From the IMG/VR virus record IMGVR_UViG_3300027628_000012: a stretch of 64,000 bases of DNA, one strand, 5' to 3'. Positions 36,085 to 64,000 of the stretch are shown piece by piece. Source of the stretch: a virus. How positions within the stretch are numbered: position 1 is the first letter of the stretch; the number at the start of each line of letters is the position of its first letter. The notes beneath the pieces were generated by a model. It worked only from the letters and a program-made list of their open reading frames with translations. It ran no database searches and was not told the DNA's origin. The position numbers and the translations under genes were made by a program.

Positions 36085-36098
36085 AGTAATCACCTAAT

Positions 36099-45283: not shown

Positions 45284-45331
45284 GCTATTTCTATAATAAA
45301 AAGTGTTATAAGAATAATAGAGAGAAATAAA

Positions 45332-45402
45332 AAATCTATAGCTCAATTGGCAGAGCAATCAGTATAACTGGTGTGTTAAAGGTTCGAGTCCTTTTGGATT
45401 TT
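45332..45402 (+). tRNA. tRNA-like element with an aberrant anticodon arm (identity not assignable)
   Basis: Acceptor AAATCTA/TGGATTT, D arm GCTC-AATTGGCA-GAGC, T arm AAAGG-TTCGAGT-CCTTT; anticodon arm ATCAG-TATAA-CTGGT has a 5-nt loop; no encoded CCA. Confidence 0.7.
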
Positions 45403-45426
45403 TTTTATTTATTTTGGAGGTGTGGA

Positions 45427-47959: not shown

Positions 47960-48964
47960 TTGATAAAGTTTTTGTATTCAACAGACTGGCACTTTACAGG
48001 CAAAAATCCCGTAGCACGTAAAGATGACTATCCTGCTGCCATAGAAAAAAAGATACGAGATTTTTTTAGAACGGGACACAAATTAGAAGTAGATGCTTTT
48101 TTAGCCGGTGGTGATTTTTTCAATTCTGCGCATACATCTCCTGAAGTCGTGACGAGACTTGGGAAGATTGTCGATTCTGAACAAAAGGGTAAAGGCTTGT
48201 TCGGAATGTGGGGGAATCATGATGAAATTGGTTATAACCCTAATACGGTAAAGAAAACAGCAATTGGGGTTATGCAAGAGTTTAGTAAGCTGTTCACTAT
48301 CTTGGATCGAACTCCTTATATTTTTGAAGCAAATGGAATGAAAGTGAAATTAACGGCTGTCAGTGCTTATGCTCAATTGGATAGTCATATTTACGATGAA
48401 CATGGAAATATTGTTCAGCACAGATCGAGAGATTGGATTGTAGAACATTCAGATGGGACACCTCATATTCATATGGCGCATGGCTTTTTAACTCCTAGAC
48501 CGCTTTTAGACACCATACGCCATACATTAATTGAGGAAATGAGACATACAAAGGCAACAATTACGCTTGGAGCACATGATCATTCTGGCTTTCCTGTTAC
48601 AAAACTTGATAATGGACTTGCTTATAATCCAGGTAGTTTAGGTCGTACCAAAGCTTCTCATGAAGAAATGAATCGCATGCCTAAATATGCTCTCATAACA
48701 ATTCATGAGGATGGAACAGGGGAGATTGAGCCTATACCTTGTAAAGTGGCTGAACCAGGTATAGAAGTGATGGATCGCAGCGTAATAGATGCTAAGAAAG
48801 AGAAAGAAGCAAGGTTAAAGGCTGCCCGAGATAAAATGCGTGTTGTGTTAAAGGACATTGATATCAAAGGCGTGGATCTAGACGTAATCGTGGATGGGTT
48901 TAAGGATAAAACAAAACCAGCAGTATTTGCGGAAGTAAAGAAGAGACTAAAACTATTTAATTAG
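47960..48964 (+). CDS. sbcD: SbcD/Mre11-like metallophosphoesterase nuclease
   Basis: STDWH, GGDFF, WGNHDE, MAHG, LGAHDH, NPGSLGR. Confidence 0.88.
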   Translation: MIKFLYSTDWHFTGKNPVARKDDYPAAIEKKIRDFFRTGHKLEVDAFLAGGDFFNSAHTSPEVVTRLGKIVDSEQKGKGLFGMWGNHDEIGYNPNTVKKTAIGVMQEFSKLFTILDRTPYIFEANGMKVKLTAVSAYAQLDSHIYDEHGNIVQHRSRDWIVEHSDGTPHIHMAHGFLTPRPLLDTIRHTLIEEMRHTKATITLGAHDHSGFPVTKLDNGLAYNPGSLGRTKASHEEMNRMPKYALITIHEDGTGEIEPIPCKVAEPGIEVMDRSVIDAKKEKEARLKAARDKMRVVLKDIDIKGVDLDVIVDGFKDKTKPAVFAEVKKRLKLFN

Positions 48965-48977
48965 GAGAGTGTGTAAC

Positions 48978-49997
48978 GTGGCGAAGGAACTTATAGATTT
49001 ATATAAAATTTTAGGTGTGGAAAAGGATTCGACTGCAAAAGAGATTCAAAAGGCATATCGTAACTTAGCTAAAACAAAACATCCAGATGTATGTAAAGAG
49101 CCCAATGCTGCTGAAGAATTTCAACAAATACATGATGCATATGAAACCCTGAGTGATCCAGCACGCAAAAAAGAATATGATGATTTTGCGAAAAATTATA
49201 GTCCTGAGAGCTCAAAATCGTTTGATGAAGTATTCAAAGAGTTCCATAGTGGTATTAAAGGTGTTCATGCTCCCCTTAAAGGTGAAAATGTGGAAATTGA
49301 AGTTTTATTCACTGTAAAGGACATTCGAGCAAGGGCACATAAGAAAATTGAATTTGACCGCTATATTAATTGTAATGAGTGTGAAGGGCATGGGTTTAAG
49401 CGTATGGAAGCTGATGCATGCCCAAGCTGCAGAACATTCGGTTATACCTTAGATGAAATATATTCTCCTTTTGGTGACATCAAGACTGAAAGACGCTGTG
49501 TTACTTGTTCTGGAAAGGGTTATGTTAAACCAACTGATTGTGAGGCATGTAGCGGCAAAGGGAAGTTAAATAGAATGGTCAACCTTACATTTGTAATGTC
49601 TGAAGGAACAACAGATGGTCAACGGATTACGCTAATCGGCAGAGGTGATCAAGGGATAAATGGCGGCGGTAATGGAGATTTAATTTTAGTGATGAGACAT
49701 GATAAGAGTGATATCTTTTCTATTACAAATCAATTTGATGTTCATCAAACAATAAAGGTTCCATATCTAAAGACATTAACTGGGGGATCCATGAAAGTAA
49801 TTATGCCTTCTGGACAGGAAGTTGATGTACCGGTTCCGCGTGGAGCAAAACAAGGCCATCAAATTATTGTGCCGGATGAAGGTCTACTTAATACACGAAA
49901 CGGCTTTTATGGAACACTTACGTTACACGTAGATATTGAAGTGCCAAAAGGGTTAACAGATGCAAAAATAAAGAAAATTATCGAAATATTAAGTTAA
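48978..49997 (+). CDS. dnaJ: DnaJ chaperone (J domain, four CxxCxGxG-type motifs, C-terminal domain)
   Basis: DLYKILGV...KHPD...AYETLSDP; CNECEGHG, CPSCRTFG, CVTCSGKG, CEACSGKG; GDLIL. GTG 48978 after AGGAG. Confidence 0.93.
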   Translation: MAKELIDLYKILGVEKDSTAKEIQKAYRNLAKTKHPDVCKEPNAAEEFQQIHDAYETLSDPARKKEYDDFAKNYSPESSKSFDEVFKEFHSGIKGVHAPLKGENVEIEVLFTVKDIRARAHKKIEFDRYINCNECEGHGFKRMEADACPSCRTFGYTLDEIYSPFGDIKTERRCVTCSGKGYVKPTDCEACSGKGKLNRMVNLTFVMSEGTTDGQRITLIGRGDQGINGGGNGDLILVMRHDKSDIFSITNQFDVHQTIKVPYLKTLTGGSMKVIMPSGQEVDVPVPRGAKQGHQIIVPDEGLLNTRNGFYGTLTLHVDIEVPKGLTDAKIKKIIEILS

Positions 49998-50009
49998 GGA
50001 GGAGCTTGG

Positions 50010-51296
50010 ATGTCAGTTGCTTTAGAAGAAGACATTTGGATAAAAGAAGTGGAGATTGTGAACTTCCAGTCTATTGAACAAATTAAGATAAAGCTTGTGA
50101 ATGGCACTAATGCTTTTGTAGGTGAGAGTAACAGCGGAAAGTCAGCAACAATACGGGCTATCCGCTGGTGTCTTCTTAATAAACCGAATGGAGACTATTT
50201 TATAACAACAGGACAGAAAGAAGCTATGGTTAGAGTCACTTTGTCCAGCGATAAGATTATTGAGAGAAGAAAAGGCGGGGGCGTTAATTTTTATCGTTTG
50301 TTTTATAAAGATGAATTGCTTGGAGAGTATACAGGATTCGGTACATCCGTTCCTCCTGAAATAGTTGAGGCACATGGGATTGTGCCTATTAGCGGTGATG
50401 TGTACTTTCAGTTTTCACAACAATTAGAAAGTGCATTTCTTCTTTCGTTACGGCCTTCCAAACGAGCTGAAGTCTTAGGTAACTTAGATGAACTTGAAAG
50501 AATTGATTCAGCACTTTCAGGCATTAATGAAGACATTCGTAATCATGTCAAAAGTCAAAAAGAGATGAAGAAAGAAAATAAAACAATAACTAAAGAAATA
50601 ACTAATTTAAAAGGTGAGACGGATCGTATTCGTTCTAAAATTGACACTTTAAAAGCGTTGAAAGAAGGGCTGCAAACTAAAATTAATTTGCACACTCATC
50701 TTACACAGCAGATTGAAAGATTAAAAGAGATCCAGGTCTTGATGAAAGAAATTGATGAAAAGCTTTTTAAGGCTAATCGAGTAGTTGAAGCGTGGCCTAG
50801 TGACTTGGAAGAGAAAGTAGCTTTAGCTAAAACGGTTATTCGTTACACAAATCGTTTAAAGGAAATTCAAGATGAACTCAACAGCTTCAGTAACATCAAA
50901 AAAGAGAAGTTGGAAAGGTTAGATGAATTAACCTTATTGATAGATAAACAGGTTGATAAATACAATACAGTCAATAAAGCTGTGACTGCTCTCAAGGCAA
51001 ATGAAAAAGCTTTAGAAGAAATCGAGAAAAGTCCAGCTAGACATGCTGCGGCTTTAGATTTACAACCGCTTGAAAAAGATATAGCTAAATACAAATTGTT
51101 GTTTAATCATATTAATCGTTTACGCGATATCGATAAAAGTCTAGAACGTTCAGATGCGATTGCGAAAGAAGCCCATAAAAATATTGAAAAGGTATTGTAC
51201 CAGTTTACTGACGCATTAAAAGATGCAAAGTTATGTCCTACATGTGGTCAAGAAACTGATCACGTTTGTACCGATACAGTCAAAAATATTATTTAA
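50010..51296 (+). CDS. sbcC: SbcC/Rad50-like ATPase, N-terminal half (Walker A, coiled coil, zinc hook)
   Basis: IVNFQS, GESNSGKS, Q-loop FSQQ, coiled coil, ends at CPTCGQ. Confidence 0.85.
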   Translation: MSVALEEDIWIKEVEIVNFQSIEQIKIKLVNGTNAFVGESNSGKSATIRAIRWCLLNKPNGDYFITTGQKEAMVRVTLSSDKIIERRKGGGVNFYRLFYKDELLGEYTGFGTSVPPEIVEAHGIVPISGDVYFQFSQQLESAFLLSLRPSKRAEVLGNLDELERIDSALSGINEDIRNHVKSQKEMKKENKTITKEITNLKGETDRIRSKIDTLKALKEGLQTKINLHTHLTQQIERLKEIQVLMKEIDEKLFKANRVVEAWPSDLEEKVALAKTVIRYTNRLKEIQDELNSFSNIKKEKLERLDELTLLIDKQVDKYNTVNKAVTALKANEKALEEIEKSPARHAAALDLQPLEKDIAKYKLLFNHINRLRDIDKSLERSDAIAKEAHKNIEKVLYQFTDALKDAKLCPTCGQETDHVCTDTVKNII

Positions 51297-51311
51297 AAGG
51301 AGATTGTTAGT

Positions 51312-51563
51312 ATGGCAACAGAATTTGAAAATTTGAAAAATATTGCTGAAGAAGCTAAACAAACAGCAATGAGAGAAGCAATAAAAACAGAACAGCTTAA
51401 TGATGAGAAAAGCCGTATTTTTGAGGACTTAGAAGAAACATTTGAACAACCTATTAAAGAGGTTGAAACGGCTGAGTCAATTGCAGCTGAGTTAAAAGAG
51501 TCTATTACGTCTAATATGGTTGAATATAAAAAGGTGCTCAGAGAGTTAGGGTATAACGTATGA
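51312..51563 (+). CDS. Short coiled-coil protein, possible middle piece of the split SbcC
   Basis: All-helical; lies between the two SbcC halves. Confidence 0.5.
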   Translation: MATEFENLKNIAEEAKQTAMREAIKTEQLNDEKSRIFEDLEETFEQPIKEVETAESIAAELKESITSNMVEYKKVLRELGYNV

Positions 51564-52204
51564 GAGAAATACAAAATATCCTTGCTATTACTGATGAGGC
51601 AATAGCAAGCTTCAATGGTACCTTAGCAGAAATAGATAAGTTAGAAATGGAATTACAGGAAAACGAAAAAGAATTAAAAAAGTTAGAAGAGCTTCTTGAA
51701 TTGTATGAAGACGTTCGTATTGTTTTACAAGAGCTTGCTGAGACAACAAGAGAACAGGTCTGTTCGGATTTAGAACATGTAGTAACTTTGTGTTTACAAG
51801 CTGTATTTGATGATCGCTACAGCTTTGAAATTGAAATAGATACAAGTCGTAACAATACAATTATTGAGTTTTATGTAGTAAAAACAGCTAGAGGCGTAGT
51901 AACCAAACGACCGCCCGAAGATAGTATGGGCGGAGGGACAGTAGATACGTGTGCAATAGGATTACGTTTTGGTTTACTTCAAATATTAAATCCCAAACCA
52001 CTGGGCCCAATTATATTAGATGAACCTGCTAAAATGGTATCCGTTGAACGTATCAATGCCATTGCTTCATTATTACAGGAGTTAACCAACATGTTTAAGA
52101 AACAAACGATTCTTGTTACTCATCACAAATCAATTATAGATATAGTAGATCATCTAATCTTTTATGAGGAAGTTGACGGGTATACACGCGTTGAAACAGC
52201 TTGA
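51560..52204 (+). CDS. sbcC: SbcC/Rad50-like ATPase, C-terminal half
   Basis: Coiled coil, ABC signature SMGGG, Walker B IILDEP, H-loop LVTHH. Confidence 0.85.
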   Translation: MREIQNILAITDEAIASFNGTLAEIDKLEMELQENEKELKKLEELLELYEDVRIVLQELAETTREQVCSDLEHVVTLCLQAVFDDRYSFEIEIDTSRNNTIIEFYVVKTARGVVTKRPPEDSMGGGTVDTCAIGLRFGLLQILNPKPLGPIILDEPAKMVSVERINAIASLLQELTNMFKKQTILVTHHKSIIDIVDHLIFYEEVDGYTRVETA

Positions 52205-52614: not shown

Positions 52615-52710
52615 GGGTTTTCTCCTTTTTGGTATTGTGACAAAACTGAAAAAAAGCTGTTATAAGAAATGTAGGAAAGACAATAAAACATTAGAAAGAA
52701 GGAATCAGTA

Positions 52711-53205
52711 ATGGAAAACAATATGGAGAATTTTGAAGTAGAAAATCAAAACAATGAAGGAGTGGAAGTTATGGAAGAAATTATGAACAATGAAGTTGAA
52801 GCAAAAGAAGCAGGTTTAGGATTTTTAGCAGGTCTAGGAATTGGAGCAGGAGCAGGTTTAGCAGTAGCAACAGGAACATGGTTTTATCAACGTAAAGTGA
52901 GACGTGATATTTTGAAAGCATTGAAATATTCAATGGAAATAGCAGCACTAAAGAATAAAAATAGCAAAACATACACTACGAAGAAACGTAGAAAAGAAGT
53001 AACAGTATCAATCGAAAACATTGATATCAGAGGAAGCATTAAACTAATCGCATACATTCAAGAAAACTTATCAAAAGTAAGAATGAGTAAGAGTGAAAGA
53101 AAAGATTGGGAAAGTATAATTGACGAGCTTGTAACGCAAGGCGGTATAGCAAGTAATCAAGACATGATCGTAGAAGAAACAATCGATAACAAGAATGCAG
53201 AGTAA
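52711..53205 (+). CDS. Single-TM protein in a promoter-gene-terminator unit
   Basis: Class B motif at 52658; GLGFLAGLGIGAGAGLAVA segment; terminator at 53213-53247. Confidence 0.65.
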   Translation: MENNMENFEVENQNNEGVEVMEEIMNNEVEAKEAGLGFLAGLGIGAGAGLAVATGTWFYQRKVRRDILKALKYSMEIAALKNKNSKTYTTKKRRKEVTVSIENIDIRGSIKLIAYIQENLSKVRMSKSERKDWESIIDELVTQGGIASNQDMIVEETIDNKNAE

Positions 53206-53294
53206 TAACAGCAAGTGACACAGATAATTGTGTCACTTCTTTTTTTTATTTATTAATTTAAAAAACTAAAACATTATTAAAGGGGACTATTAAA

Positions 53295-54389
53295 ATGACA
53301 CAAGTTCAAGATACAGTAAACCAAAGTATGACTTCAGCACTTTCTTTATTACATCCGATTGCAACAATGAATATCAATCCAAATTTACAAAGCGTTTTCT
53401 TTAATCCAGAAGAAGGAATTGCATTATGTGGATTTAGACGTGAAGTAGCTGATTTAGGTGCAGCATTTGTTTGTGCAAGATATGGTCGTAACAATGAAGT
53501 AAAAGTAGCTCATAACAAATATGAGAAAGGTCCAGGTCTTGTTAATTATGAAAGAGAAGGCGAATACTTTGAGACAAATAAAGGGCTACCAGGTAGAACG
53601 AATGAGAATGGTGGACTAGAAGCTGTTAATCATGCAGCAGCTATAGAACAAATTGAAGCTGGAAAAGCAGAAGTAGAAGGAGCTTTTGAAGTAGGGTTGA
53701 ATCCTGGTGCTGTTTTTAAATTCTTAGAGTATTTACAAAAAACACATAAGGAGAAAACTAGAGACAAAAAGGTAAATATTATGTGTACGACAGATGTAAT
53801 TCCAAAAGGGCATTTTGTTGCAGTTCCAGAAAGAATGCCTGATGGAGAAGTAGTTGTAATGACAAAGATTGTCGCAAATGGAAAACCGCGTTTAATCCCG
53901 CTATATATCCATGAAAACTCTAAGATTCATGTAACAAAGTTAAATCCAGGCGTAGTTTACATTGTTAAACCTGTGAGCGTTGATAAGCACACAGGTAAAA
54001 GATTTGTAGATGTATTGCGTCCACAACATGAAGGAGTTCGTATTGCAGCACAACATTTCAAAATGGGTATTATCAAACCAGGAGATCCAGCTTATAGTGT
54101 TGATCCTGATAGCAACAATGGACTGCTGGCTCGTGGGATTAAAAACTTCTCTTATCTTGCAGGTCAAAACAGAAGTAAAATTCAAGGTGCGCCAATGATG
54201 ACAATTGATTTAGATATCTTCTATAACTTAATGAAGATGTTCTCAGCGTATCCAGTTGTAGCTATGCGCTTTAAAGACTACACAGCAGGTATTTATATGG
54301 CAGCAAGAGGTAATGAATATTTACCGCATATTGAAGCTCTTGTAGCGCCAACAGTTCAACACGTTCGCGGAAGAATCTGGTTGCCATGA
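53295..54389 (+). CDS. Hypothetical protein, possible beta-clamp-like fold; first gene of the VW-array operon
   Basis: C-terminus IDLDIFYNLMKMFSAYPVVAMRFKDYTAGIYM...EALVAP resembles the DnaN C-terminal domain pattern, matched by eye. Confidence 0.4.
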   Translation: MTQVQDTVNQSMTSALSLLHPIATMNINPNLQSVFFNPEEGIALCGFRREVADLGAAFVCARYGRNNEVKVAHNKYEKGPGLVNYEREGEYFETNKGLPGRTNENGGLEAVNHAAAIEQIEAGKAEVEGAFEVGLNPGAVFKFLEYLQKTHKEKTRDKKVNIMCTTDVIPKGHFVAVPERMPDGEVVVMTKIVANGKPRLIPLYIHENSKIHVTKLNPGVVYIVKPVSVDKHTGKRFVDVLRPQHEGVRIAAQHFKMGIIKPGDPAYSVDPDSNNGLLARGIKNFSYLAGQNRSKIQGAPMMTIDLDIFYNLMKMFSAYPVVAMRFKDYTAGIYMAARGNEYLPHIEALVAPTVQHVRGRIWLP

Positions 54390-54742
54390 TTAAACAAAAC
54401 GGACTTATTTTGTTGGAGGAAGATGATTTAGGCGTTGATATAAATGATATTTATCAACGAGTATGTTATTACGATAAGCGACTGCCAGAGTTTGAGGATA
54501 TATATGATGATTATAAGATTCAAGTCATAAATAAAAATATTGATGAGCAAACAAGTCATATAACAGGATATTTATCAGAGCTACGAAGTGGCAAAGAGTT
54601 TGAAGAATTAAAGAGGTTAGAAGTTAAGGAGCTTCCTACTTTATCTAAAGTGGAGCTCCATTTTTATTTAAATAGAAAATATTATGCGTTTGCTGGCGGA
54701 AAGAAAGATGTATTTAATCCACCAATATTGGAGGTGTGGTAA
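54386..54742 (+). CDS. VW-tail family member 1 (ends FNPPILEVW)
   Basis: Shared C-terminal motif; coupled to neighbours. Confidence 0.75.
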   Translation: MIKQNGLILLEEDDLGVDINDIYQRVCYYDKRLPEFEDIYDDYKIQVINKNIDEQTSHITGYLSELRSGKEFEELKRLEVKELPTLSKVELHFYLNRKYYAFAGGKKDVFNPPILEVW

Positions 54743-55110
54743 TGAATGAATTAATAAAGCATGCAGATTTTGATGTAGAAATATTGTTTAAAATCTATTC
54801 AGAAGTAGTAAGGCGTTATGATATCCCGGATATTGAAATGATCCGGGATCTCTATGATGACCGAGTTCAAGATCGTTTAACGATGTTCCATTACGATGTG
54901 AAACCATATGAATTAGGGGCTCAGCCGAGCTTCCTAATTCATAATCTTCGCACGTATCCAGAAAGCTTGTTAAAGAACCTTAGTAATCAAATTGGCATGA
55001 AAGTAGTATTAGAAACAGAAGAAATTCAAGATGTTTTTGACTACTTTTATATTTGTTATAAAAATGACTTTGACGAGATCTTTCATTTACCTACACGGGA
55101 GGTATGGTAA
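54742..55110 (+). CDS. VW-tail family member 2 (ends FHLPTREVW)
   Basis: TAATG overlap start; shared motif. Confidence 0.75.
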   Translation: MNELIKHADFDVEILFKIYSEVVRRYDIPDIEMIRDLYDDRVQDRLTMFHYDVKPYELGAQPSFLIHNLRTYPESLLKNLSNQIGMKVVLETEEIQDVFDYFYICYKNDFDEIFHLPTREVW

Positions 55111-55380
55111 ATGAATCAGTTAAGCACAGACTTAAAGATGGCTCTGCTTACTAAAAGAGTTGTAGAAGAATATATAAGCGTTTTGGATACAGTCCAGCCT
55201 TATGATAGATTTACTTTTTTAGATTCGTATGTTCCTCATCCACTGGACTTAGTGAACGCAATCCCCGGTGTACCTTGGGAAGAAGCAATGATAGAAATTT
55301 CTAAAGTGATTCATGAAAATCGGATTTTTATAAAATTCAGAGATGAATATTACAATATTCCAATCTTGGAGGTATGGTAA
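55111..55380 (+). CDS. VW-tail family member 3 (ends YNIPILEVW)
   Basis: Shared motif. Confidence 0.75.
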   Translation: MNQLSTDLKMALLTKRVVEEYISVLDTVQPYDRFTFLDSYVPHPLDLVNAIPGVPWEEAMIEISKVIHENRIFIKFRDEYYNIPILEVW

Positions 55381-55776
55381 ATGTTTTTACAAAAACTAGA
55401 GGACTTTCCGTTAGGTTCAATTATTCAACACGAATATATGCATATTGCATCACGAGCTTTTGCTGGTAGTTCGGAGTATCAATTGCCTCATCTAGGTGAA
55501 CTGGTTGAAGAGACAGGAGGATCAACCATCTTAATGTTACGTGAGGAAAACATTAAAGCAGCTATTATGAGAAATGAGCATGAACTATATTCAATGACGA
55601 AAAGACAATTTGTTAAAGCGGCTCTTAGTAAGAAAATTACGCTTCACGGTGAAGAAGTGCCGGATATGAATGACATATCTTTTCAAGTGACAAAATTCCT
55701 TCAATCTCGATGTATGTCCTATATGGATTTTGAAGATAAAATATGGAACTGTCACATAGGACGTGAAGTATGGTGA
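55381..55776 (+). CDS. VW-tail family member 4 (ends WNCHIGREVW)
   Basis: Shared motif with a one-residue insertion. Confidence 0.75.
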   Translation: MFLQKLEDFPLGSIIQHEYMHIASRAFAGSSEYQLPHLGELVEETGGSTILMLREENIKAAIMRNEHELYSMTKRQFVKAALSKKITLHGEEVPDMNDISFQVTKFLQSRCMSYMDFEDKIWNCHIGREVW

Positions 55777-56216
55777 AGCATCAAATTATTAGTGAGCAAA
55801 AACTTTTATCATTAAAAATGGCTTTAATTGATCGTGAATGTATAGATCAATTCGTTGTGGGATTGTTGCTGTGGTATCAAGACTATAAGCCTGTACGTTT
55901 TACGGAAAGCGAAGAAGTAAATAATGTGCCGAATCTATTCGAGTTATTCGAGTATTCTTCTTATGACGAATTAATTACACATCAATTTGTACTGAGCGAT
56001 ATAGCGAAAACAATGAGAGAAATAGAAGGAGCAGATTATGAAACAGTGGAAAGAGATGCAATTGATGTATTTAATGGACGGTATCCTGATTTCTTTGATG
56101 TCATGGTTATGGATTGTCGCACTGTATTAGATGCGTACAATCTTTTTTATTGTTATCAAGATGATGCTCAATACAAACCAAAGATTTATAACCCTTATCT
56201 AAAGGAGGTATGGTAA
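55770..56216 (+). CDS. VW-tail family member 5 (ends YNPYLKEVW)
   Basis: Shared motif. Confidence 0.75.
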   Translation: MVKHQIISEQKLLSLKMALIDRECIDQFVVGLLLWYQDYKPVRFTESEEVNNVPNLFELFEYSSYDELITHQFVLSDIAKTMREIEGADYETVERDAIDVFNGRYPDFFDVMVMDCRTVLDAYNLFYCYQDDAQYKPKIYNPYLKEVW

Positions 56217-56669
56217 GTGCGAGACTTACTAATAAAAGAGAACCTGTATTCATTTGTTCCAGATCCAGCAGAAGAAATTTTTGAGGAAGGGGCATTCACA
56301 TGGTATTTCGGAAATTGCGAGGAACGGTTGACACCTCACATATTTGATAACTTACTTAATAAGGATCCATGGGCAGAACATTTTTTATTGTGGATTCATA
56401 GAGAGATTTCTGATTACCACTTTGCAAGCTTAGAACAAGATCGTTTCTTTGATCCAAGCATTTTTCCAGTCGAAGATTTGGAAGAGGATAATTATGATGC
56501 AGTTAACGACTATTATTTTGATAATTATGACATGAACGAAATGTTTTTCTACCTTGATATTAAACAATTACTGGATAACAATCATATGTTTTATCTAGAT
56601 AACTATGCAGGCAATGTAATCCAAAAGAAAACACGAGTTATAAATCCACCTATAAAGGGAGTTTGGTAA
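56217..56669 (+). CDS. VW-tail family member 6 (ends INPPIKGVW)
   Basis: Shared motif. Confidence 0.75.
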   Translation: MRDLLIKENLYSFVPDPAEEIFEEGAFTWYFGNCEERLTPHIFDNLLNKDPWAEHFLLWIHREISDYHFASLEQDRFFDPSIFPVEDLEEDNYDAVNDYYFDNYDMNEMFFYLDIKQLLDNNHMFYLDNYAGNVIQKKTRVINPPIKGVW

Positions 56670-56671
56670 AA

Positions 56672-57202
56672 ATGAATAAATTAAAAGAATCTAAGTATCC
56701 TTTTCTGTTTTTTCCAGAAGAGGCTTTTCATGTTGGGCAAGTAATTAATTATGTGACAAATAGCTATGTAAATGTATTAGAACAAACAAACAGTGAAGTG
56801 GTTACACCAAATAATATATCGATGAGAGATAAATACATTACAACATTAGGCACCGTGGGACGCATTGTAAAGTTGGGAGAAAATCATGTTGATTTATTTC
56901 ATACAGAATCTCATAACGCGATTATTCGAGATTTAGCGATTAAGTATAACGATGATCTAGCAAAGGTGACGTTAGATTTCATGAAGCGAGAAGCACTAGC
57001 TGTAGACCTAACGAATGAACAACGTGAACTTTTAAATCATGATATCCGTGTAGCTTTTAATGCAGCTAGAATATTTTATTTAGATTCGGAAGAACCTTAT
57101 CATTCACTTCAATTTATGAGTGGCCAAGAAGAAGGTTCAGTTTTCACTGAGCAAAATGTAAAAAAACTATTTCGTCATATTCCAATTAAAGAGGTGTGGT
57201 GA
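56672..57202 (+). CDS. VW-tail family member 7 (ends RHIPIKEVW)
   Basis: Shared motif. Confidence 0.75.
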   Translation: MNKLKESKYPFLFFPEEAFHVGQVINYVTNSYVNVLEQTNSEVVTPNNISMRDKYITTLGTVGRIVKLGENHVDLFHTESHNAIIRDLAIKYNDDLAKVTLDFMKREALAVDLTNEQRELLNHDIRVAFNAARIFYLDSEEPYHSLQFMSGQEEGSVFTEQNVKKLFRHIPIKEVW

Positions 57203-57203
57203 C

Positions 57204-57608
57204 ATGTCTTATATAACTATTAGAGAGCAATTCCCTGATTTAAAAGTAGATGTTGATGTTCCATTATTTATAGATGAAATTTTTGATTTATATGAAGAAA
57301 TTGTAGCGGACAGCTTTATATTTAATAACTTACATGATGTAGCTATTCCGGCTTTTACTCATTTTATGGCACATGATGAATTTACAGGATGTGTAGATAA
57401 TCTTGCATCTTATGAAGTGTTTGGTGTGGCAGCTGAATACGCTCCAATAGACGATGAATCAGCTGATAAATTTTGGATAGAATACGACCGTCAAGCGCTT
57501 TTAATTAATGAGGACCTTTTTAATATCATGAAATTTTACAAGATGGCTTATTGTTTAAATGAAAAAGAAAATATTTATATAAATCTTCCAATTAAAGAGG
57601 TGTGGTAA
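57204..57608 (+). CDS. VW-tail family member 8 (ends INLPIKEVW)
   Basis: Shared motif. Confidence 0.75.
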   Translation: MSYITIREQFPDLKVDVDVPLFIDEIFDLYEEIVADSFIFNNLHDVAIPAFTHFMAHDEFTGCVDNLASYEVFGVAAEYAPIDDESADKFWIEYDRQALLINEDLFNIMKFYKMAYCLNEKENIYINLPIKEVW

Positions 57609-58123
57609 TGTATCAACTTAAAACGCAAGAACATCGTTTTGATTTTTTGGAAAATACAACCCTTAACGGACATCAAAATATAGGCAGTCTACTGGGTGAG
57701 TTATATGAAGAATCTTACGAAACACAGGAATTTTATAGTGATTGTACTCCTGTAATATTAGTGCCGACAAGATACATGTTATTGTTAACAGCTTGGAATA
57801 ATTTTGAATGGCTTTATATGCAATACATTTTAAATGGTTACGGAGATGATGAAGGGGAAGAAACACGTCGGCGCATAGAAGAAGGCGAAGACATGGATGA
57901 AATTATGATGGAATGGAGTATGGTAAAAGGTGAACTTTCTTCGTACGGCTGTTACTTCAGTGAAGGAACTGTAGAACAGAAGTATTTTAATGAAATTATG
58001 AGGGCTTTAAATATGTATCACATCAGCTACTTTGATGATACAAGTACTATGGGTGTATTTACTTCACCCGAAGAAGTAAAGCCTACGAAGTTGATTAATC
58101 CTTATATAAAAGAGGTGTGGTAA
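57608..58123 (+). CDS. VW-tail family member 9 (ends INPYIKEVW)
   Basis: TAATG overlap start; shared motif. Confidence 0.75.
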   Translation: MYQLKTQEHRFDFLENTTLNGHQNIGSLLGELYEESYETQEFYSDCTPVILVPTRYMLLLTAWNNFEWLYMQYILNGYGDDEGEETRRRIEEGEDMDEIMMEWSMVKGELSSYGCYFSEGTVEQKYFNEIMRALNMYHISYFDDTSTMGVFTSPEEVKPTKLINPYIKEVW

Positions 58124-58124
58124 C

Positions 58125-58490
58125 GTGGGTGAGTTAGTGAAACGTAAGGAACTTGAACTTTCATTGGTCCCTTACCATTTATCTAAAGATTTTGAAGAGA
58201 TGGTATTAGAATGCTATTTGCAATACGGATACTACGATACTCACAATTTAGGAGAATTCGTAGACAGCTTTGCTATATATGCAGAGTCTCATGAGAAAAC
58301 AGGTAACCCCTATTTGTTAAGTGACGATCAATCAAAAACGAGTGATTTTTATAATGATATTATCAATAATCGCTTTTATGAACTAATAGATGATGTCATG
58401 GAAGTACTAAATTATCACAATATGTTTTTTATAGATAAAGATTTTCGATATGTAAAATATTATAATTTGCCAATCAAACCGGTTTGGTAA
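58125..58490 (+). CDS. VW-tail family member 10 (ends YNLPIKPVW)
   Basis: Shared motif; followed by an independent RBS. Confidence 0.75.
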   Translation: MGELVKRKELELSLVPYHLSKDFEEMVLECYLQYGYYDTHNLGEFVDSFAIYAESHEKTGNPYLLSDDQSKTSDFYNDIINNRFYELIDDVMEVLNYHNMFFIDKDFRYVKYYNLPIKPVW

Positions 58491-58502
58491 GGAGGAGACA
58501 TT

Positions 58503-58958
58503 ATGAATTTTTTAAATATACGTAAAGGTCCTAAGATGGAAGCTATTATTGGAGAACATCGCAATGAGTTTGAAAAGCATGTAATTGATTTGTATTGTCA
58601 AACGGAAGGTGGATTTTGGGGTGCGGTACCTTCTTTAGAAAGAAATATTATCGACCACATAAAACCTCAATATACACTAGCTGTAGTATTGTCACAAGGA
58701 ACAGGAGATCAATCATACTTCATCAAGGAAACAGCAGGGAAATTTATACCGGGGTTCTTGGAGGTATGGTCAGCAGCTAATCTTGAAGCAATAAAAGAAG
58801 AAGCACCTGGTAATTATATTAACGCTATACATGGAGTGGCAAAGGACACGTTATCAGTCATTGACTATCATAATATGTTTTGCGCACTTCAGGTTGATGA
58901 GATTAATGGGCGTCCAGTACAAGGGGTTATGAATACCCCTATCCATCAAGTATGGTAG
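58503..58958 (+). CDS. VW-tail family member 11 (ends MNTPIHQVW)
   Basis: Shared motif; followed by an independent RBS. Confidence 0.75.
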   Translation: MNFLNIRKGPKMEAIIGEHRNEFEKHVIDLYCQTEGGFWGAVPSLERNIIDHIKPQYTLAVVLSQGTGDQSYFIKETAGKFIPGFLEVWSAANLEAIKEEAPGNYINAIHGVAKDTLSVIDYHNMFCALQVDEINGRPVQGVMNTPIHQVW

Positions 58959-58972
58959 AAAGGAGAAAAAAT

Positions 58973-59401
58973 ATGTATGAATTAATACAAAGAACGAGTC
59001 CGGATTACAATGTTGTGCCGGACTATTTTATTAAGCGATTTGAGACGCAAGTAATGAGTAGTTATGTTCGGAGCTTAAAGAACAACGATGATCTGCCATT
59101 CATTGATGATAATTTGTTATTGAATAACGCCCTTCACCCCGAACTTTGGGCAGCAAGTTATCTTGATTATAAGCAGCATCCTCGTTATTATCTCGAAACT
59201 ACAGAGGGTATGTCGATAACTCAGATACACGATTTGAACTCTGGAATTTATGAAATGTTGAACCAAAAGCCTGATCCTAATTTTGATGACCTATTGTATT
59301 GGGATGTTCAATCGTTTTTAGAGCATCATCATATAACTTATAGAGATTTGTATTTTTACAATCGCGCTCCTAGAAATCTCCCAATAAGACAGGTGTGGTA
59401 A
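58973..59401 (+). CDS. VW-tail family member 12 (ends RNLPIRQVW)
   Basis: ATG 58973 after AAAGGAG; shared motif. Confidence 0.75.
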   Translation: MYELIQRTSPDYNVVPDYFIKRFETQVMSSYVRSLKNNDDLPFIDDNLLLNNALHPELWAASYLDYKQHPRYYLETTEGMSITQIHDLNSGIYEMLNQKPDPNFDDLLYWDVQSFLEHHHITYRDLYFYNRAPRNLPIRQVW

Positions 59402-59403
59402 GT

Positions 59404-59832
59404 ATGGATGAATTAATGATGAATAAGCAATATCACTTAGCACATTTGCTGGGTACAGAATTCGAGGTGCGTATGTATGATGCTTATGTTGGACTAGCAA
59501 CATCAGAGCGCCCACCCTTTTTAGAAGATATGTTTACCGAAACCATTCAAATGCAGGCTCTTATATTATTGGAGTCTGCACGTAAAAATCCAGGCGTATT
59601 AAATTTATCAAAACACGAATGGGATGAATTGCATATCAATGTATGGCACGATAATGATGTAGCAAAGTTACATGTGCTAGATCTAGTGTCTCCAAATGAA
59701 GTAGATAATGTCACGTATGATATTTTTTATTATTTATGCAAATATCGAATGAGTGTGTTAACGAAAAGGAATCACAGTAACCGAACAGATCAAGCGAATC
59801 TTATTCATTCTCCTTACACGGAGGTATGGTGA
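59404..59832 (+). CDS. VW-tail family member 13 (ends IHSPYTEVW)
   Basis: Shared motif. Confidence 0.75.
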   Translation: MDELMMNKQYHLAHLLGTEFEVRMYDAYVGLATSERPPFLEDMFTETIQMQALILLESARKNPGVLNLSKHEWDELHINVWHDNDVAKLHVLDLVSPNEVDNVTYDIFYYLCKYRMSVLTKRNHSNRTDQANLIHSPYTEVW

Positions 59833-59833
59833 A

Positions 59834-60559
59834 ATGGTTAGCCGGTATGATGTAGTCAACTTGTTTAACAGTCAGTTGCCTTTATTTAGTTGGAAAGGTG
59901 ATGAGCATGCAAAGGGTATTTACTTCAATCAAGAATATGGCTATCTCGTAGAACGAACTTATGCAGTTAGGGTTAGGCATAATGAGCCTGCCCCTTCGGT
60001 TTTTTATAAGCCGCATGATAACAACAATGAGGAAGATGAGGTCTTTTCTGAATACCCATATAAGGATTTAACGAAGGTTACGAAAAATTATCATCACCTA
60101 TTTCAAACAAACGAGTTAGATGAGGGTATGTTAGAGCACTTGTTTAACGTAGATTTTTACGACCATGTAATATTGCCAGCAGCTCCTTTAGACACTCTAT
60201 TGCGAAAGGTTGCAAACAAACGGCAGCGGGATCGGTGCTTATTTGAAATAAAAAAAGATGCCGATGAAATTCGAGTATCGGTGATTGAAAGAGCCAACGC
60301 AACCGTTTTATTTAGCGAATCATTCAAAACTAGTACAGAAATTGGATATCGTGAGAACAAAGGTATGTTATATTCTTATTTAAATGCAAACACCGTCCTT
60401 CACGCTCTGAATCTATTTAATTTAAAAGGAAATGTTTTCTTTTCTATATCTCGTGATAAAATAAAATTGAACAGCTACACTTCAACACCTAAAGTTGAAG
60501 CGGTCATTTCTGTACCTAGACAAAAGATGGTAAAAATAAATCGCAATCAGATTAATTGA
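59834..60559 (+). CDS. Hypothetical protein, possible beta-clamp-like fold
   Basis: C-terminus YLNANTVLHALNLFNLKGNVFFSISRDKIKLNS...VEAVISVPR resembles DnaN (FNxxYLxDAL...V...IMPxR), matched by eye. Confidence 0.4.
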   Translation: MVSRYDVVNLFNSQLPLFSWKGDEHAKGIYFNQEYGYLVERTYAVRVRHNEPAPSVFYKPHDNNNEEDEVFSEYPYKDLTKVTKNYHHLFQTNELDEGMLEHLFNVDFYDHVILPAAPLDTLLRKVANKRQRDRCLFEIKKDADEIRVSVIERANATVLFSESFKTSTEIGYRENKGMLYSYLNANTVLHALNLFNLKGNVFFSISRDKIKLNSYTSTPKVEAVISVPRQKMVKINRNQIN

Positions 60560-63500
60560 AGGAGGCAATTTTTACTTGTGAAAGGCAGGGGAAATTAGTG
60601 AGTTGGTTTAAGGATGTTACGGAATATATACATCGCAATATAGATGACTTTGTGTATGTATTCCTCAAAGCAAAAGATATTGATAAATCAGGAAAAAGGA
60701 TGAAGATTGATCCATGTCCTTTTTGTGGACATAATGGATGTTTTTCTTTGACGAGAGGCGTTAATGGATTTCATTGCTTTTCTTGTAAAGCAAAAGGAAC
60801 GCTCATTAGCGCAGTGGAACAATTAGAAGGGGACGAAATTGAAGCCCGTAAAGCTTTAGCTGAATGGTCAGGCATTAAATATAATTATGCTAGTTACTCT
60901 CCTGAGAAAGAGGCAGCAAGGCAAAAGTGGGATCGTTTTCAACAACTTTGTAAAGAGGCCCTGAAATTTTACTATACACGTTTAACGAGGGTACAGGTAG
61001 AAATTAATGGAGAAAAGGTCAGTCCAGGTCAGTATCAAATCGATGTACGTAAGCATGATTTAAAGACGCTTGCGGATTTTCGAGTAGGGTATTCTGGCGG
61101 CAAGAAACAATTAGTAGAGTACTTGTTAAAACAAGGATATACAAAAGAAGAAATAGATGAAGCTATGAGAGAAATGATTGGATTTCCAGACGGCTATTTT
61201 CTATACCCTTACTTTGATGAGAGAGGGAATTTGGTACGTATCAATGCAAAGCTGTTCGTCAGAGGCTGTTATGGAAGTCAAGGAGCACATGGGTATAATT
61301 TTGATTGTTCATTCCAGACACTCCAATTAGATTCGGAGACAAAGAAGAAACATGAAGCAACAAATAAACACAAGATGCGTCCTGACAATCTTTCTAAAGG
61401 TAGTAAGTTAGGTGCTTTTTTATTTTTATCAAAAGGATGGAGAAACAAGAAGTACGCAATTATGGTGGAAGGAGAGAACGACCTCCTATCTGTACATGAA
61501 GCGTTGCAACAAATGCCTCCTGTTTATAGAAAAGAATTCCTACCTATTTGCCTGGGCGGTAATAGTCCGGATGGGATGTTTAAATCAGAATTTCTCAGAA
61601 AATTTGAAGAAGTATATGATGCCTTCGATAATGATGATGCAGGGGATACATACCGTGAACAGCTAGATCGTGAAATGCCGGAAGTGAAATTAAAGCATAT
61701 ATCTATTCCAAATGATTGCAACGACATTGATTTGTTTTTGAAAACAGAAACTGATGCGCTGGTTCAATTTGAGGAAATGCTTGATTCGGCAACGGTGGTT
61801 CCGCCTAAACATCACCTTATTACACGTGAAGGTAATAGACATATCTGGAATGTAAACAATCGTCATTTCGGTTTAAAATATGAGATTACGTCATTTAAAT
61901 ATTCTAAAAATGCTTATGTAGGTACGTTGAGTCAATATAAACATGGCATTAAAACAGTCGCTAAACAAGGTGACATAGATGCTTTAAGTATGCCTGGTAT
62001 GAATGAGGAAATGATGCGGTTACGTACAGCATTAAGTGATGAGATAAACCATTACTATCATAACGTGCGTTGGATCAACGACGAACCTGAGCGAACTTTT
62101 GATGAACTACTCGATATTTTCAAATTGACGAAGTATAAAAAAGAGGTTATTAAACAGATTGCTTGGTATCTCTATCATGCTAGTAAACAGGAAAAAGAAT
62201 TTAACATTGATCGAATTAAAAAGGTAATAAGCAACGAAAAAGATGTAGCTATTATTTTGCAAGAAATGACTGGTTATGAGAACCAAGACATTGATTTGGA
62301 TAAGATTTATCCTGAGATACATTTATCACAGTCGTTGTATCCGTTGAATAATGATGCTTTTTTATTTTTTGAACTGCGTGTGAAAGATGGGGAAGATACC
62401 AAACGCGTACCCTGTCTTATCTCTAACCACAAGGAAATCATCAGGCTTGATATCATGAAAAAGAAAGAAGCGCAATCTTTATTGCTGGTAAACAAAAAGT
62501 ATGAGTTGCCAGAGGAAGTCGAACAGATGCCATTTAAGGCTACAGAGCTTTCATTACAAGCTTCTTATGTAACCAAGTGGGTAAATGGTAAACTAACAGA
62601 CAACGAGATTTCACCGGAGTCTATTATTCATGAGATCGAATCGTTTATACGTTCCACTTACTATGCAACAGATGAAGTAATAAAAGTAGTGTCCTTATGG
62701 ATTTATGCAACGTATTATTACAGGCTATTTACTAGTGGATTCCCTTATCTATTAATTAACGGGACTAAGGGATCTGGTAAATCAACACTTGATTTAATTT
62801 TAAAGTTGTTATCGTTTAATCCAACGTTCACCGTAAATACAAGTGAAGCAGCTCTATATAGACGTATCGACTTTTTCGGTGGAACGTTTATACTTGATGA
62901 GCTTGAAAATTTAACAGATTCAAAAGATGCTGATAAAAGTGGATTGGCTGCTGTTCTGAAAGCTGGATATGCAGAAAATGGTGAGGTTCTTCGAACAGAT
63001 CCTAATACCAATCATGCACGTGGGTTTTCCGCATTTGGACCCAAGGTAATCTCGAACATTAGAGGGATTGATGACGTAATTGCTGACCGATGTATTCGTA
63101 TTGATGCAGTAGCTGCACCAGAAAGCAAATTACGTAGATTAAAAGATCCGTTTGAATATAAAGGAGAAAAGCGAGAACAAATTTATTCCTTAACATCGAG
63201 GGCCGCTATCTCCGTTCTTAATCACTTTACAACAGTGGATAAGATCTTCAAAGAAAACACGCGTATAGATACAGGCAACGCTCGATTAACTCAATTACTA
63301 CGCCCATTAGTAACGATAGCGCGTTTGGTAGGAGCGGACTACGAGAAGCATCTTATGAATTATTACGAGACGGCTATTAAGGATTCGAAGCAGGATATTA
63401 AGCTGGAAACACTTGAAGGTAAAATGGAAACAATCCTTAAAGATGTTTCTTTAGAATTACTTGGACTCACTACAAACTACAAATATATTAAAAGTGATCA

Positions 63501-63840
63501 TGTCTACGATAAAGAAATTGCGTATGATGAAGAAACAGGTATTTTTGAAATGGATAGCATGCATTTTAAAGTATTCGCTCAGGAAATGGATACGGACAAA
63601 GTATATGACATGAAAGACGTAAAAGCTGCTGTTAAAGTAGCACTTGGCAAAAACTTTAACCACAAAGAAAACCGTATACAAACTAAGGTAACCATTGAAG
63701 ATGAAGGGTTACTCCGCCAAGTGAATAACGCTAAATATGCACAGGTTTTCCGCTATACGTTAAACGTAAGAGACTACGTTCCAAAACATGTAGAAGCGTT
63801 TAAAGATAAAGAGCCGGAAACAACAAAACCGTTATTCTAG
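60556..63840 (+). CDS. dnaG: DnaG-type primase (Zn finger plus TOPRIM) fused to a C-terminal P-loop ATPase/helicase domain
   Basis: CPFCGH...HCFSC, FRVGYS, YPYFDERG, MVEGENDLLS, DAFDNDDAGD; later NGTKGSGKST and FILDELE. The start codon is uncertain. Confidence 0.85.
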   Translation: MKEAIFTCERQGKLVSWFKDVTEYIHRNIDDFVYVFLKAKDIDKSGKRMKIDPCPFCGHNGCFSLTRGVNGFHCFSCKAKGTLISAVEQLEGDEIEARKALAEWSGIKYNYASYSPEKEAARQKWDRFQQLCKEALKFYYTRLTRVQVEINGEKVSPGQYQIDVRKHDLKTLADFRVGYSGGKKQLVEYLLKQGYTKEEIDEAMREMIGFPDGYFLYPYFDERGNLVRINAKLFVRGCYGSQGAHGYNFDCSFQTLQLDSETKKKHEATNKHKMRPDNLSKGSKLGAFLFLSKGWRNKKYAIMVEGENDLLSVHEALQQMPPVYRKEFLPICLGGNSPDGMFKSEFLRKFEEVYDAFDNDDAGDTYREQLDREMPEVKLKHISIPNDCNDIDLFLKTETDALVQFEEMLDSATVVPPKHHLITREGNRHIWNVNNRHFGLKYEITSFKYSKNAYVGTLSQYKHGIKTVAKQGDIDALSMPGMNEEMMRLRTALSDEINHYYHNVRWINDEPERTFDELLDIFKLTKYKKEVIKQIAWYLYHASKQEKEFNIDRIKKVISNEKDVAIILQEMTGYENQDIDLDKIYPEIHLSQSLYPLNNDAFLFFELRVKDGEDTKRVPCLISNHKEIIRLDIMKKKEAQSLLLVNKKYELPEEVEQMPFKATELSLQASYVTKWVNGKLTDNEISPESIIHEIESFIRSTYYATDEVIKVVSLWIYATYYYRLFTSGFPYLLINGTKGSGKSTLDLILKLLSFNPTFTVNTSEAALYRRIDFFGGTFILDELENLTDSKDADKSGLAAVLKAGYAENGEVLRTDPNTNHARGFSAFGPKVISNIRGIDDVIADRCIRIDAVAAPESKLRRLKDPFEYKGEKREQIYSLTSRAAISVLNHFTTVDKIFKENTRIDTGNARLTQLLRPLVTIARLVGADYEKHLMNYYETAIKDSKQDIKLETLEGKMETILKDVSLELLGLTTNYKYIKSDHVYDKEIAYDEETGIFEMDSMHFKVFAQEMDTDKVYDMKDVKAAVKVALGKNFNHKENRIQTKVTIEDEGLLRQVNNAKYAQVFRYTLNVRDYVPKHVEAFKDKEPETTKPLF

Positions 63841-63872
63841 GAACAACATCTACTAACAATCATATAATCTAC

Positions 63873-63906
63873 AAAAGAGGACAAGCTTATTGCTGTCCTC
63901 TTTTTT
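63873..63906 (+). terminator. Rho-independent terminator
   Basis: AAAAGAGGACA/TGTCCTCTTTT stem plus T-run. Confidence 0.8.
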
Positions 63907-64000
63907 ATAATGACCATTTTCTCTAAAAAGTGTTATAAGAAAAGTGGAGAAGGAAACAAAAAAATAATAAAAGGCAGGTAATAAAAATGATGATTAAAAC

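Follow-up and report, generated by a model that had tools for sequence, protein, structure and literature searches.

Why should thirteen small and much diverged phage genes, lying one directly after another, all end in the same two amino acids? The question is raised by a stretch of viral DNA of 64,000 nucleotides (IMG/VR record IMGVR_UViG_3300027628_000012; the whole of this stretch is referred to below as the window), in which 13 consecutive open reading frames (ORFs) on the + strand, between positions 54386 and 59832, each finish in Val-Trp-stop. The original prediction, made from the letters alone, saw in this ending a C-terminal docking module that carries different N-terminal domains to a common hub. 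Here we show that it is selection on the protein, and not the overlapping Shine–Dalgarno (SD) sequence of the next gene, that maintains the tail, N/H-x-P-[IVL]-x-x-V-W-COOH; the SD sequence shapes solely the GAG codon choice and the Glu preference at position −3. It is plausible that the tail serves all of the proteins for docking, and we place at about 40% the probability of the specific proposal developed below, that it is a putative C-terminal docking peptide for the phage sliding clamp, a role for which a 241-aa protein is the candidate, and that the array encodes clamp-docked accessory proteins.

The run of 13 back-to-back ORFs was confirmed, and its ending is confined to it: among the 243 stop-to-stop frames of at least 60 aa in the window, exactly 13 end in VW, and these are the array ORFs. 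All of the products are acidic, as had been predicted (pI 4.1–5.6, net charge −5 to −19). Gene calls in orthologues indicate that the likely true starts of five genes are 54742, 56672, 57608, 58973 and 59404; the five longest-ORF starts, GTG or TTG codons inside the preceding tail, are probably artefacts, and the products are then 89–176 aa long. Twelve of the 13 tails share an eight-residue spacing, the exception being member 4, which has a one-residue insertion. The array genes are as follows.

54386..54742, + strand: member 1, 118 aa, tail NPPILEVW; matches the family profile hidden Markov model (HMM) at E 2e-8
54742..55110, + strand: member 2, 122 aa from ATG 54742, TAATG overlap, tail HLPTREVW
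55111..55380, + strand: member 3, 89 aa, tail NIPILEVW; the most divergent body of the array
55381..55776, + strand: member 4, 131 aa, tail N-CHIGREVW with the one-residue insertion
55770..56216, + strand: member 5, 148 aa, tail NPYLKEVW
56217..56669, + strand: member 6, 150 aa, GTG start, tail NPPIKGVW
56672..57202, + strand: member 7, 176 aa, tail HIPIKEVW
57204..57608, + strand: member 8, 134 aa, tail NLPIKEVW
57608..58123, + strand: member 9, 171 aa, tail NPYIKEVW
58125..58490, + strand: member 10, 121 aa, GTG start, tail NLPIKPVW, no SD inside the tail
58503..58958, + strand: member 11, 151 aa, tail NTPIHQVW, no SD inside the tail
58973..59401, + strand: member 12, 142 aa from ATG 58973, tail NLPIRQVW
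59404..59832, + strand: member 13, 142 aa from ATG 59404, tail HSPYTEVW

The tail is a property of a large family. A family profile of 43 members, scored against 1.84 billion cluster representatives (50% identity), matched 227 proteins at E ≤1e-3 and 32 at E ≤1e-10; all are 87–200 aa long and nearly all matches run end-to-end. Counted on the best 150 of these 227 representatives, the last two residues are VW in 140, IW in 8, LW in 1 and VF in 1. Position −1 is thus Trp in 149, and position −2 is Val in 141, Ile in 8 and Leu in 1. Further upstream, position −8 is Asn in 128 and His in 14 and never Gln, −6 is Pro in 129, −5 is Ile in 72, Val in 32, Leu in 15 and Met in 4 (123 with one of these four), and −3 is Glu in 78, Gly in 18 and Gln in 16, with other residues in the remainder. 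Positions −4 and −7 mostly hold Lys/Arg or hydrophobic residues, Lys/Arg being common at −4.

The same holds among the closer relatives of the window. Eight complete syntenic loci were available, L001 and L002 on ~180-kb contigs in Priestia megaterium assemblies and L003–L006, L008 and L009 on metagenome contigs, and in the array genes of these eight related genomes the terminal residue is Trp in 110 of 111 and Tyr in the other. The insertion in the tail of member 4 (N-C-H-I-G-R-E-V-W) is retained in the member 4 orthologues. No residue follows the terminal Trp in any of more than 260 family sequences, which are only 13–25% identical overall; such strict termination in diverged sequences suggests a role for the free carboxylate.

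An ending of this kind might arise as a by-product of translational coupling, if the SD sequence and spacer of the next gene were to force G-A-G-G-T-N-T-G-G-T-A-A at each junction and hence Glu-Val-Trp-stop. GGAGG or GAGG does lie in the last codons at most junctions, and Glu at −3 is encoded by GAG rather than GAA in a ratio of 46:8, opposite to the preference in gene bodies (GAA 117, GAG 40); this excess of GAG against GAA-rich bodies limits the SD effect to the Glu at −3. Elsewhere in the tail, codon use is free. In the array itself the Val codon is GTG in five genes, GTA in six and GTT in two, and the stop is TAA in nine, TGA in three and TAG in one, as originally counted. In 84 members from six genomes, Trp is encoded by TGG in 83, Val by GTG in 34, GTA in 30, GTT in 14 and GTC in 4, and Pro by all four of its codons, while the stop is TAA in 45, TGA in 33 and TAG in 6. 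Moreover, an SD-like core is absent from the last five codons in 30 tails, and all 30 keep [VIL]-W; so do the roughly 12 junctions at which the next start lies at least 9 nt downstream, most of them with their own SD. Members 10 and 11 of the window, in which GGAGG is absent from the tail and a separate ribosome-binding site follows the stop, were correctly singled out at the outset. The residues at −8 and −6 lie outside any SD and are 86–95% conserved with synonymous codons free, and TGG would fall in the spacer, where no base is required. The claim that conservation is at the protein level therefore stands, in that relocation of the SD is not accompanied by loss of the motif. Because the tail persists where no SD is embedded in it and synonymous codons are used freely, we reject the coupling artefact, to which we attach almost no probability.

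The bodies of the proteins do not bear out the picture of a hypervariable N-terminal domain joined to a separate C-terminal module, nor the impression of little N-terminal similarity. That picture fails because the profile matches run end-to-end. When the last 10 residues were cut and each member's own orthologues were left out of the profile, the bodies of members 5–12 matched at E 1e-9 to 1e-17, those of members 1, 2 and 13 at 1e-5 to 1e-6, that of member 4 at 1e-4 and that of member 3 at 2e-3, reversed controls giving 4e-3 to 7e-2. Since bodies without a tail still match the family profile, the array genes are full-length paralogues. Their N-terminus is mostly M-N-E/Q-L across the family, followed by a near-invariant Tyr in helix 1 and a conserved Pro; part of the reason for the M-N-E-L start may be that A/T-rich codons help initiation. 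Across the family, conservation is 90% or higher for one Tyr (helix 1) and one Asp (helix 4). The second shared element reported upstream of the tail, D/E-[IV]-x3-[LF]-x4-[IM]-x-[YF], proved to be real: it corresponds to the end of the long helix 4 and the first strand of a hairpin, and its Asp is the residue conserved at 90% or above.

AlphaFold2 modelled member 10, with 150 homologues, as one compact domain (predicted local distance difference test, pLDDT, 91.7; predicted template-modelling score, pTM, 0.81), in which an extended N-terminus is followed by helices at residues 17–34, 39–45, 48–59 and 73–97, a hairpin at 102–105/110–113 and, directly after it, the tail at 114–121. A model of member 6 from 43 sequences was weaker (pLDDT 67.8) and had the same layout. 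The array is best explained as a family of small acidic proteins that is old and restricted to one lineage, each protein being a single domain with a predicted architecture of four helices and a C-terminal β-hairpin; its 13–16 paralogues are translationally coupled and lie within the replication transcription unit. Mean-field direct coupling analysis of 218 sequences, applied to covariation between tail and body, returned local and gap artefacts alone.

Both the family and its fold are undescribed. Nothing consistent was found in Pfam or PHROG for 43 and 150 members, and a profile search of the PDB gave a best E of 0.28. In searches for relatives of the fold, the best E values were 1.1 against the PDB (Foldseek), 0.32 against AFDB clusters, 0.89 against BFVD and 1.1 against Swiss-Prot models; template-modelling (TM) scores in the ESM Atlas were 0.41 or lower; and VIA-align against 48,161 chains reached a best Z of 4.7, under the noise stated for helical models. 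Three candidate assignments were set aside. A ‘Pua-like’ assignment, PF24405, proposed for member 6 by an ESM feature search (score 0.95), is unsupported, as no Pfam match appeared in 43 members at E ≤10. A PDB profile match to an ASCH domain (E 0.33) is likewise unsupported, the confident AlphaFold2 model being helical rather than a β-barrel and no PUA or ASCH protein appearing in the fold searches. Structural matches resembling winged helices (E2F-DP, Stn1 and BrxR; Z 3.4–4.4) fall under the noise for helical models and were not used.

Gene order in the array is conserved across these phages. Across the eight genomes orthology is positional, member 1 pairing with member 1 and so on to member 13, which pairs with the last gene; the arrays hold between 13 and 16 genes, having gained or lost members in the middle only. 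In the three most distant genomes the array members are 23–54% identical, as against 39–62% for the flanking genes. Compared with the closest relative, the ratio of non-synonymous to synonymous substitution rates (dN/dS) is 0.05–0.32 for all 13 members, with values of 0.15, 0.17 and 0.06 for the 364-aa gene that precedes the array, the clamp-like gene that follows it and the primase-helicase gene beyond. This pattern of sequence divergence is that expected of stable, non-redundant genes under purifying selection, and not of a rapidly exchanged arsenal.

In one relative a 140-aa helix-turn-helix gene with weak matches to KorA and to sigma-70 region 4 (L002 9139–9561) is inserted within the array and has no VW tail, indicating that the array tolerates foreign insertion.

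If the tail is a docking peptide, a candidate for its partner is encoded by the gene immediately downstream.

59834..60559, + strand: 241-aa protein with a predicted sliding-clamp fold (two domains, the size of PCNA or gp45); candidate hub, always directly after the array

The ESM Atlas model of this protein resembles DnaN, PCNA and Rad9 clusters (TM 0.62–0.68 over 194–214 residues), and all 10 of the 10 structural matches are clamps or viral clamp-like clusters. The hub part of the original prediction has thereby gained a concrete candidate. Its other part, in which the proteins are interchangeable adaptors directed against host defence proteins, is unsupported, given the orthology, the purifying selection and the placement in a replication unit.

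The tail also has the spacing of a known clamp-binding motif, the PCNA-interacting peptide (PIP) box, whose consensus is Q-x-x-[LIM]-x-x-[FY]-[FY]. Written as N1-x-P3-I4-x-x-V7-W8, it has a polar amide residue at position 1, an aliphatic residue at 4 and a hydrophobic residue followed by an aromatic one at 7 and 8, and like the motifs of archaeal PCNA partners it lies at the extreme C-terminus. Archaeal PIP motifs are all found at the very C-terminus (PMC6881253). The array tail differs from the PIP box in having Asn or His at position 1, a nearly fixed Pro at 3, Val at 7, and a practically invariant Trp at 8 that is always the last residue. The bacterial β-clamp motif QL[SD]LF is more distant, there being no Q-L-x-L-F in the tail logo; the ...[PDSE]-L-F end of the phage primase-helicase, described below, comes closer to it. 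A terminal aromatic residue with its free carboxylate is a common replisome handle, as in the C-terminal tip of SSB (D-D-D-I-P-F) and the acidic tails of T7 gp2.5 and gp4. The array tail shares the terminal aromatic residue and the free carboxylate with these, and the primase-helicase of the window has an acidic ...L-F end of just this kind; unlike them, the array tail is not acidic (only −3 is often Glu), has no disordered linker and abuts the hairpin. Tandem genes that share a short terminal element are known from the internal proteins of T4, which have a common capsid-targeting sequence, and from poxvirus ankyrin/PRANC proteins. Both resemble the array in comprising many tandem genes with a short conserved terminal element, but their bodies are unrelated or made of repeats and their gene turnover is fast, whereas the array has homologous bodies and ordered orthologues and lies in a replication operon.

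The nearest parallel within phages comes from T4, in which gp43, gp33 and gp55 carry interchangeable hydrophobic C-terminal epitopes that bind the clamp (PMC2988020). As in the array, the T4/RB69 epitopes are a short hydrophobic C-terminal peptide common to several proteins of a phage with its own clamp (PMC2988020), and gp33, like the array proteins, is small (112 aa), acidic and helical. Unlike the array tails, the T4/RB69 epitopes are unrelated to them in sequence and belong to three unrelated proteins with flexible linkers, as against 13–16 paralogues of one fold with no linker, whose binding is putative. It is on the PIP-box spacing, the strictly terminal position, the clamp-fold gene directly after the array and the precedents of archaeal PCNA partners and T4 that we base the proposed docking. 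Each paralogue would ride on the phage clamp through the common tail, in the manner of a tool-belt, and the diverged surface of its body might then give it a non-redundant part of its own to play at the replication fork or in transcription coupled to replication.

Several observations weigh against clamp docking. Asn or His in place of Gln at position 1 and Val in place of an aromatic residue at 7 would make this a non-canonical PIP box, and the tail is unlike bacterial QL[SD]LF. The identity of the clamp hangs on one model of moderate confidence (pTM 0.70, pLDDT 0.65), and sequence searches with the 241-aa protein found no Pfam, PDB or homologue match to clamps (DNA_pol3_beta, PCNA) beyond its own lineage. 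A tail that directly follows the hairpin with no linker, modelled as a block at pLDDT ~86, is not what one would usually see in a free docking peptide, and accords with a tail packed on its own domain. No polymerase or other enzyme with a VW tail was found on related contigs, over the ~9 kb that precede the window and the ~28 kb that follow the array. Finally, a clamp has no obvious need of 13–16 small partners. A DNA polymerase gene was likewise not seen in the regions read, namely the window together with L007, L010 and L011, about 100 kb of a genome type of ~180 kb, although these regions do contain genes for a primase-helicase, a clamp-like protein, a helicase and nucleases.

The genes on either side bear on the alternatives. 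Their order is identical in eight of the eight loci: SbcC-like genes, a protein of ~361–370 aa, the array of 13–16 small genes, a protein of ~236–246 aa and a primase-helicase of ~1080 aa. In the window the relevant features, other than the clamp-like gene already given, are these.

52658..52666, + strand: promoter-like motif TGTTATAAG, the copy nearest upstream of the array unit, followed by one at 63931
53213..53238, + strand: terminator-like hairpin, an 11-bp stem and then a T run, between a 164-aa gene and the 364-aa gene
53295..54389, + strand: 364-aa protein; its stop overlaps the start of member 1 (ATGA), and orthologues (40–84% identity) precede the array in 8/8 genomes
60556..63840, + strand: primase-helicase, 1094 aa, the last gene of the unit; Zn-ribbon DnaG, Toprim, PHROG 239

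The motif TGTTATAAG occurs in 11 exact copies in the window, at 360, 1252, 6229, 11410, 34175, 44759, 45114, 45304, 46827, 52658 and 63931, all on the + strand, as compared with 1.08 expected; it is probably a phage-specific promoter element. As no copy lies in 52667–63930, the array, the clamp-like gene and the primase-helicase gene would form a single unit. Searches of Pfam, PHROG and PDB sequences gave no match for the 364-aa protein, which is translationally coupled to member 1. Its C-terminus, V-R-G-R/K-I/V-W-L/T-P, is conserved (the Trp is Cys in L009), and language-model features of the protein point weakly to β-clamp domains (score 0.79); profile–profile comparison with the 241-aa clamp-like protein showed no relation between the two. 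The primase-helicase ends in an acidic or Pro-rich stretch followed by L-F-COOH in nine of nine sequences (for example K-P-L-F, E-P-L-F, D-D-L-F, E-S-L-F and E-E-L-F), which looks, from the sequences, like a second and different C-terminal docking tail within the array operon. Within the ~100 kb examined, a VW-like ending outside the array family was met once, in a protein of 84–89 aa that ends in D-D-P-x-I-x-E-V-W-[IL]. It is encoded directly after the primase-helicase gene in three phages (L003 4969–5238, L004 14882–15151, L008 14450–14704) and is absent from that place in the window, L001 and L002. By HMM it does not belong to the array family (E about 3–4), and it has no match in Pfam or PHROG.

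The main rival to clamp docking is that the tail acts within its own protein. The Val-Trp would pack on the helical bundle with the helix 1 Tyr and the helix 4 Asp, so as to close the fold or form a conserved functional site, and would not be detachable. The AlphaFold2 model is readily accommodated by such an arrangement, with the tail placed at pLDDT ~86 straight after hairpin strand 2 and no linker between them; the sole other near-invariant residues of the family are that one Tyr and that one Asp, both in core helices, and Trp is typically the most conserved residue of a protein core. Packing alone, however, would not require that in more than 260 sequences of 13–25% identity no residue ever follows the Trp, nor does it account for a similar I-x-E-V-W end on an unrelated small protein of the array operon. 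We regard this self-packed tail as a real possibility, although a tentative one.

Should the tail dock after all, its partner might be something other than the clamp: the 364-aa protein, the primase-helicase ring, the phage RNA polymerase or a sigma factor, or host DnaN or a Clp unfoldase, in which last case the tail would be a shared C-terminal degron. A strictly terminal aromatic residue is typical of several systems of C-terminal recognition, including the SSB tip, the T7 gp2.5 and gp4 tails, HbYX motifs and ssrA-type degrons. The 364-aa gene, moreover, always precedes the array and overlaps member 1 (ATGA), and it shares one transcription unit with the array and the primase-helicase. Against this, none of the candidates is singled out by any data, the 364-aa protein has no recognisable fold or family, and the tail is not acidic as the tips of SSB and gp2.5 are; we consider another hub unlikely. 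Less likely again is the proposal that the proteins are interchangeable, fast-evolving adaptors, each delivering to a hub the host defence protein that its variable body recognises, by analogy with poxvirus ankyrin/PRANC proteins or the internal-protein locus of T4. It would suit a tandem family of small acidic proteins that evolves faster than its flanks (23–54% against 39–62% identity in the most distant genomes) and whose copy number varies between 13 and 16 through mid-array gains and losses. Yet positional orthologues are kept in all eight genomes, dN/dS values of 0.05–0.32 give no sign of gene-wide positive selection, the array lies inside a replication unit and not in an accessory island, and no member matches any anti-defence or defence-related profile.

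Returning to docking on the phage clamp, a broader form of that proposal can be put forward, which we find doubtful. N/H-x-P-[IVL]-x-x-V-W-COOH would be a new class of clamp- or ring-binding C-terminal motif, and the array a ‘tool-belt expansion’ of 13–16 ordered paralogues of a new fold that compete for or co-occupy the phage clamp, each linking it to a separate activity, for example replication, repair, host takeover or late transcription by the RNA polymerase of the phage. To our knowledge, no comparably large set of dedicated paralogous clamp partners exists in any virus, and we found no described counterpart in the literature to a clamp gene accompanied by 13–16 ordered paralogues that share a single terminal motif. 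If the tail does dock on the clamp or another hub, it would constitute a new short linear motif and the proteins a new fold devoted to it; a phage would be able to diversify one small scaffold into more than 12 stable, ordered clamp partners, and the array would be a compact model in which the sorting of many ligands by sliding clamps or replisome rings could be studied. Regardless of mechanism, the family is well delimited and previously unannotated, comprising 227 or more clusters (50% identity) that belong to no Pfam or PHROG family, and it has a confident structural model. Together, the 364-aa protein, the array, the clamp-like protein and the primase-helicase are a module by which an undescribed clade of large Bacillaceae phages from soil and rhizosphere can be recognised.

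The window itself is phage DNA, as seen from its genes for the large subunit of terminase (34441–36093, − strand), portal (25727–27685, − strand) and a helicase (14147–16231); its + strand also encodes an SbcCD-like nuclease, a full-length DnaJ and the primase-helicase. Near relatives of the window were sought among GenBank phages (INPHARED) and PLSDB plasmids with no relevant match, and IMG/VR and GTDB genomes queried with two flanking proteins yielded none. The window most probably derives from a plant metagenome, and partial matches to its sequence occur in soil and rhizosphere sequencing runs; among the sequencing runs searched, no RNA run contained it. The best explanation is that the window comes from an undescribed clade of roughly 180-kb phages of Priestia/Bacillaceae. 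Two Priestia megaterium assemblies contain related contigs of ~180 kb, so that such a phage may be obtainable for experiments.

Some further features of these genomes may be recorded. Genes for a small acid-soluble spore protein (PF00269), for an IDEAL-domain protein and for a ParB-like protein occur in relatives (L009 3095–3286 and 19924–20220; L010 15295–16227); the last of the three may point to a plasmid-like or carrier state in hosts that form spores. In the window (47960–52204), a full-length type-I DnaJ of the phage, with J domain, Zn-finger domain and C-terminal domain (48969–49997), is encoded between the gene for an SbcD-like phosphoesterase and split genes for an SbcC-like ATPase, an arrangement that is kept in all relatives. 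ARAGORN also detected, at 45331–45403, a tRNA-Tyr with the unusual anticodon ATA.

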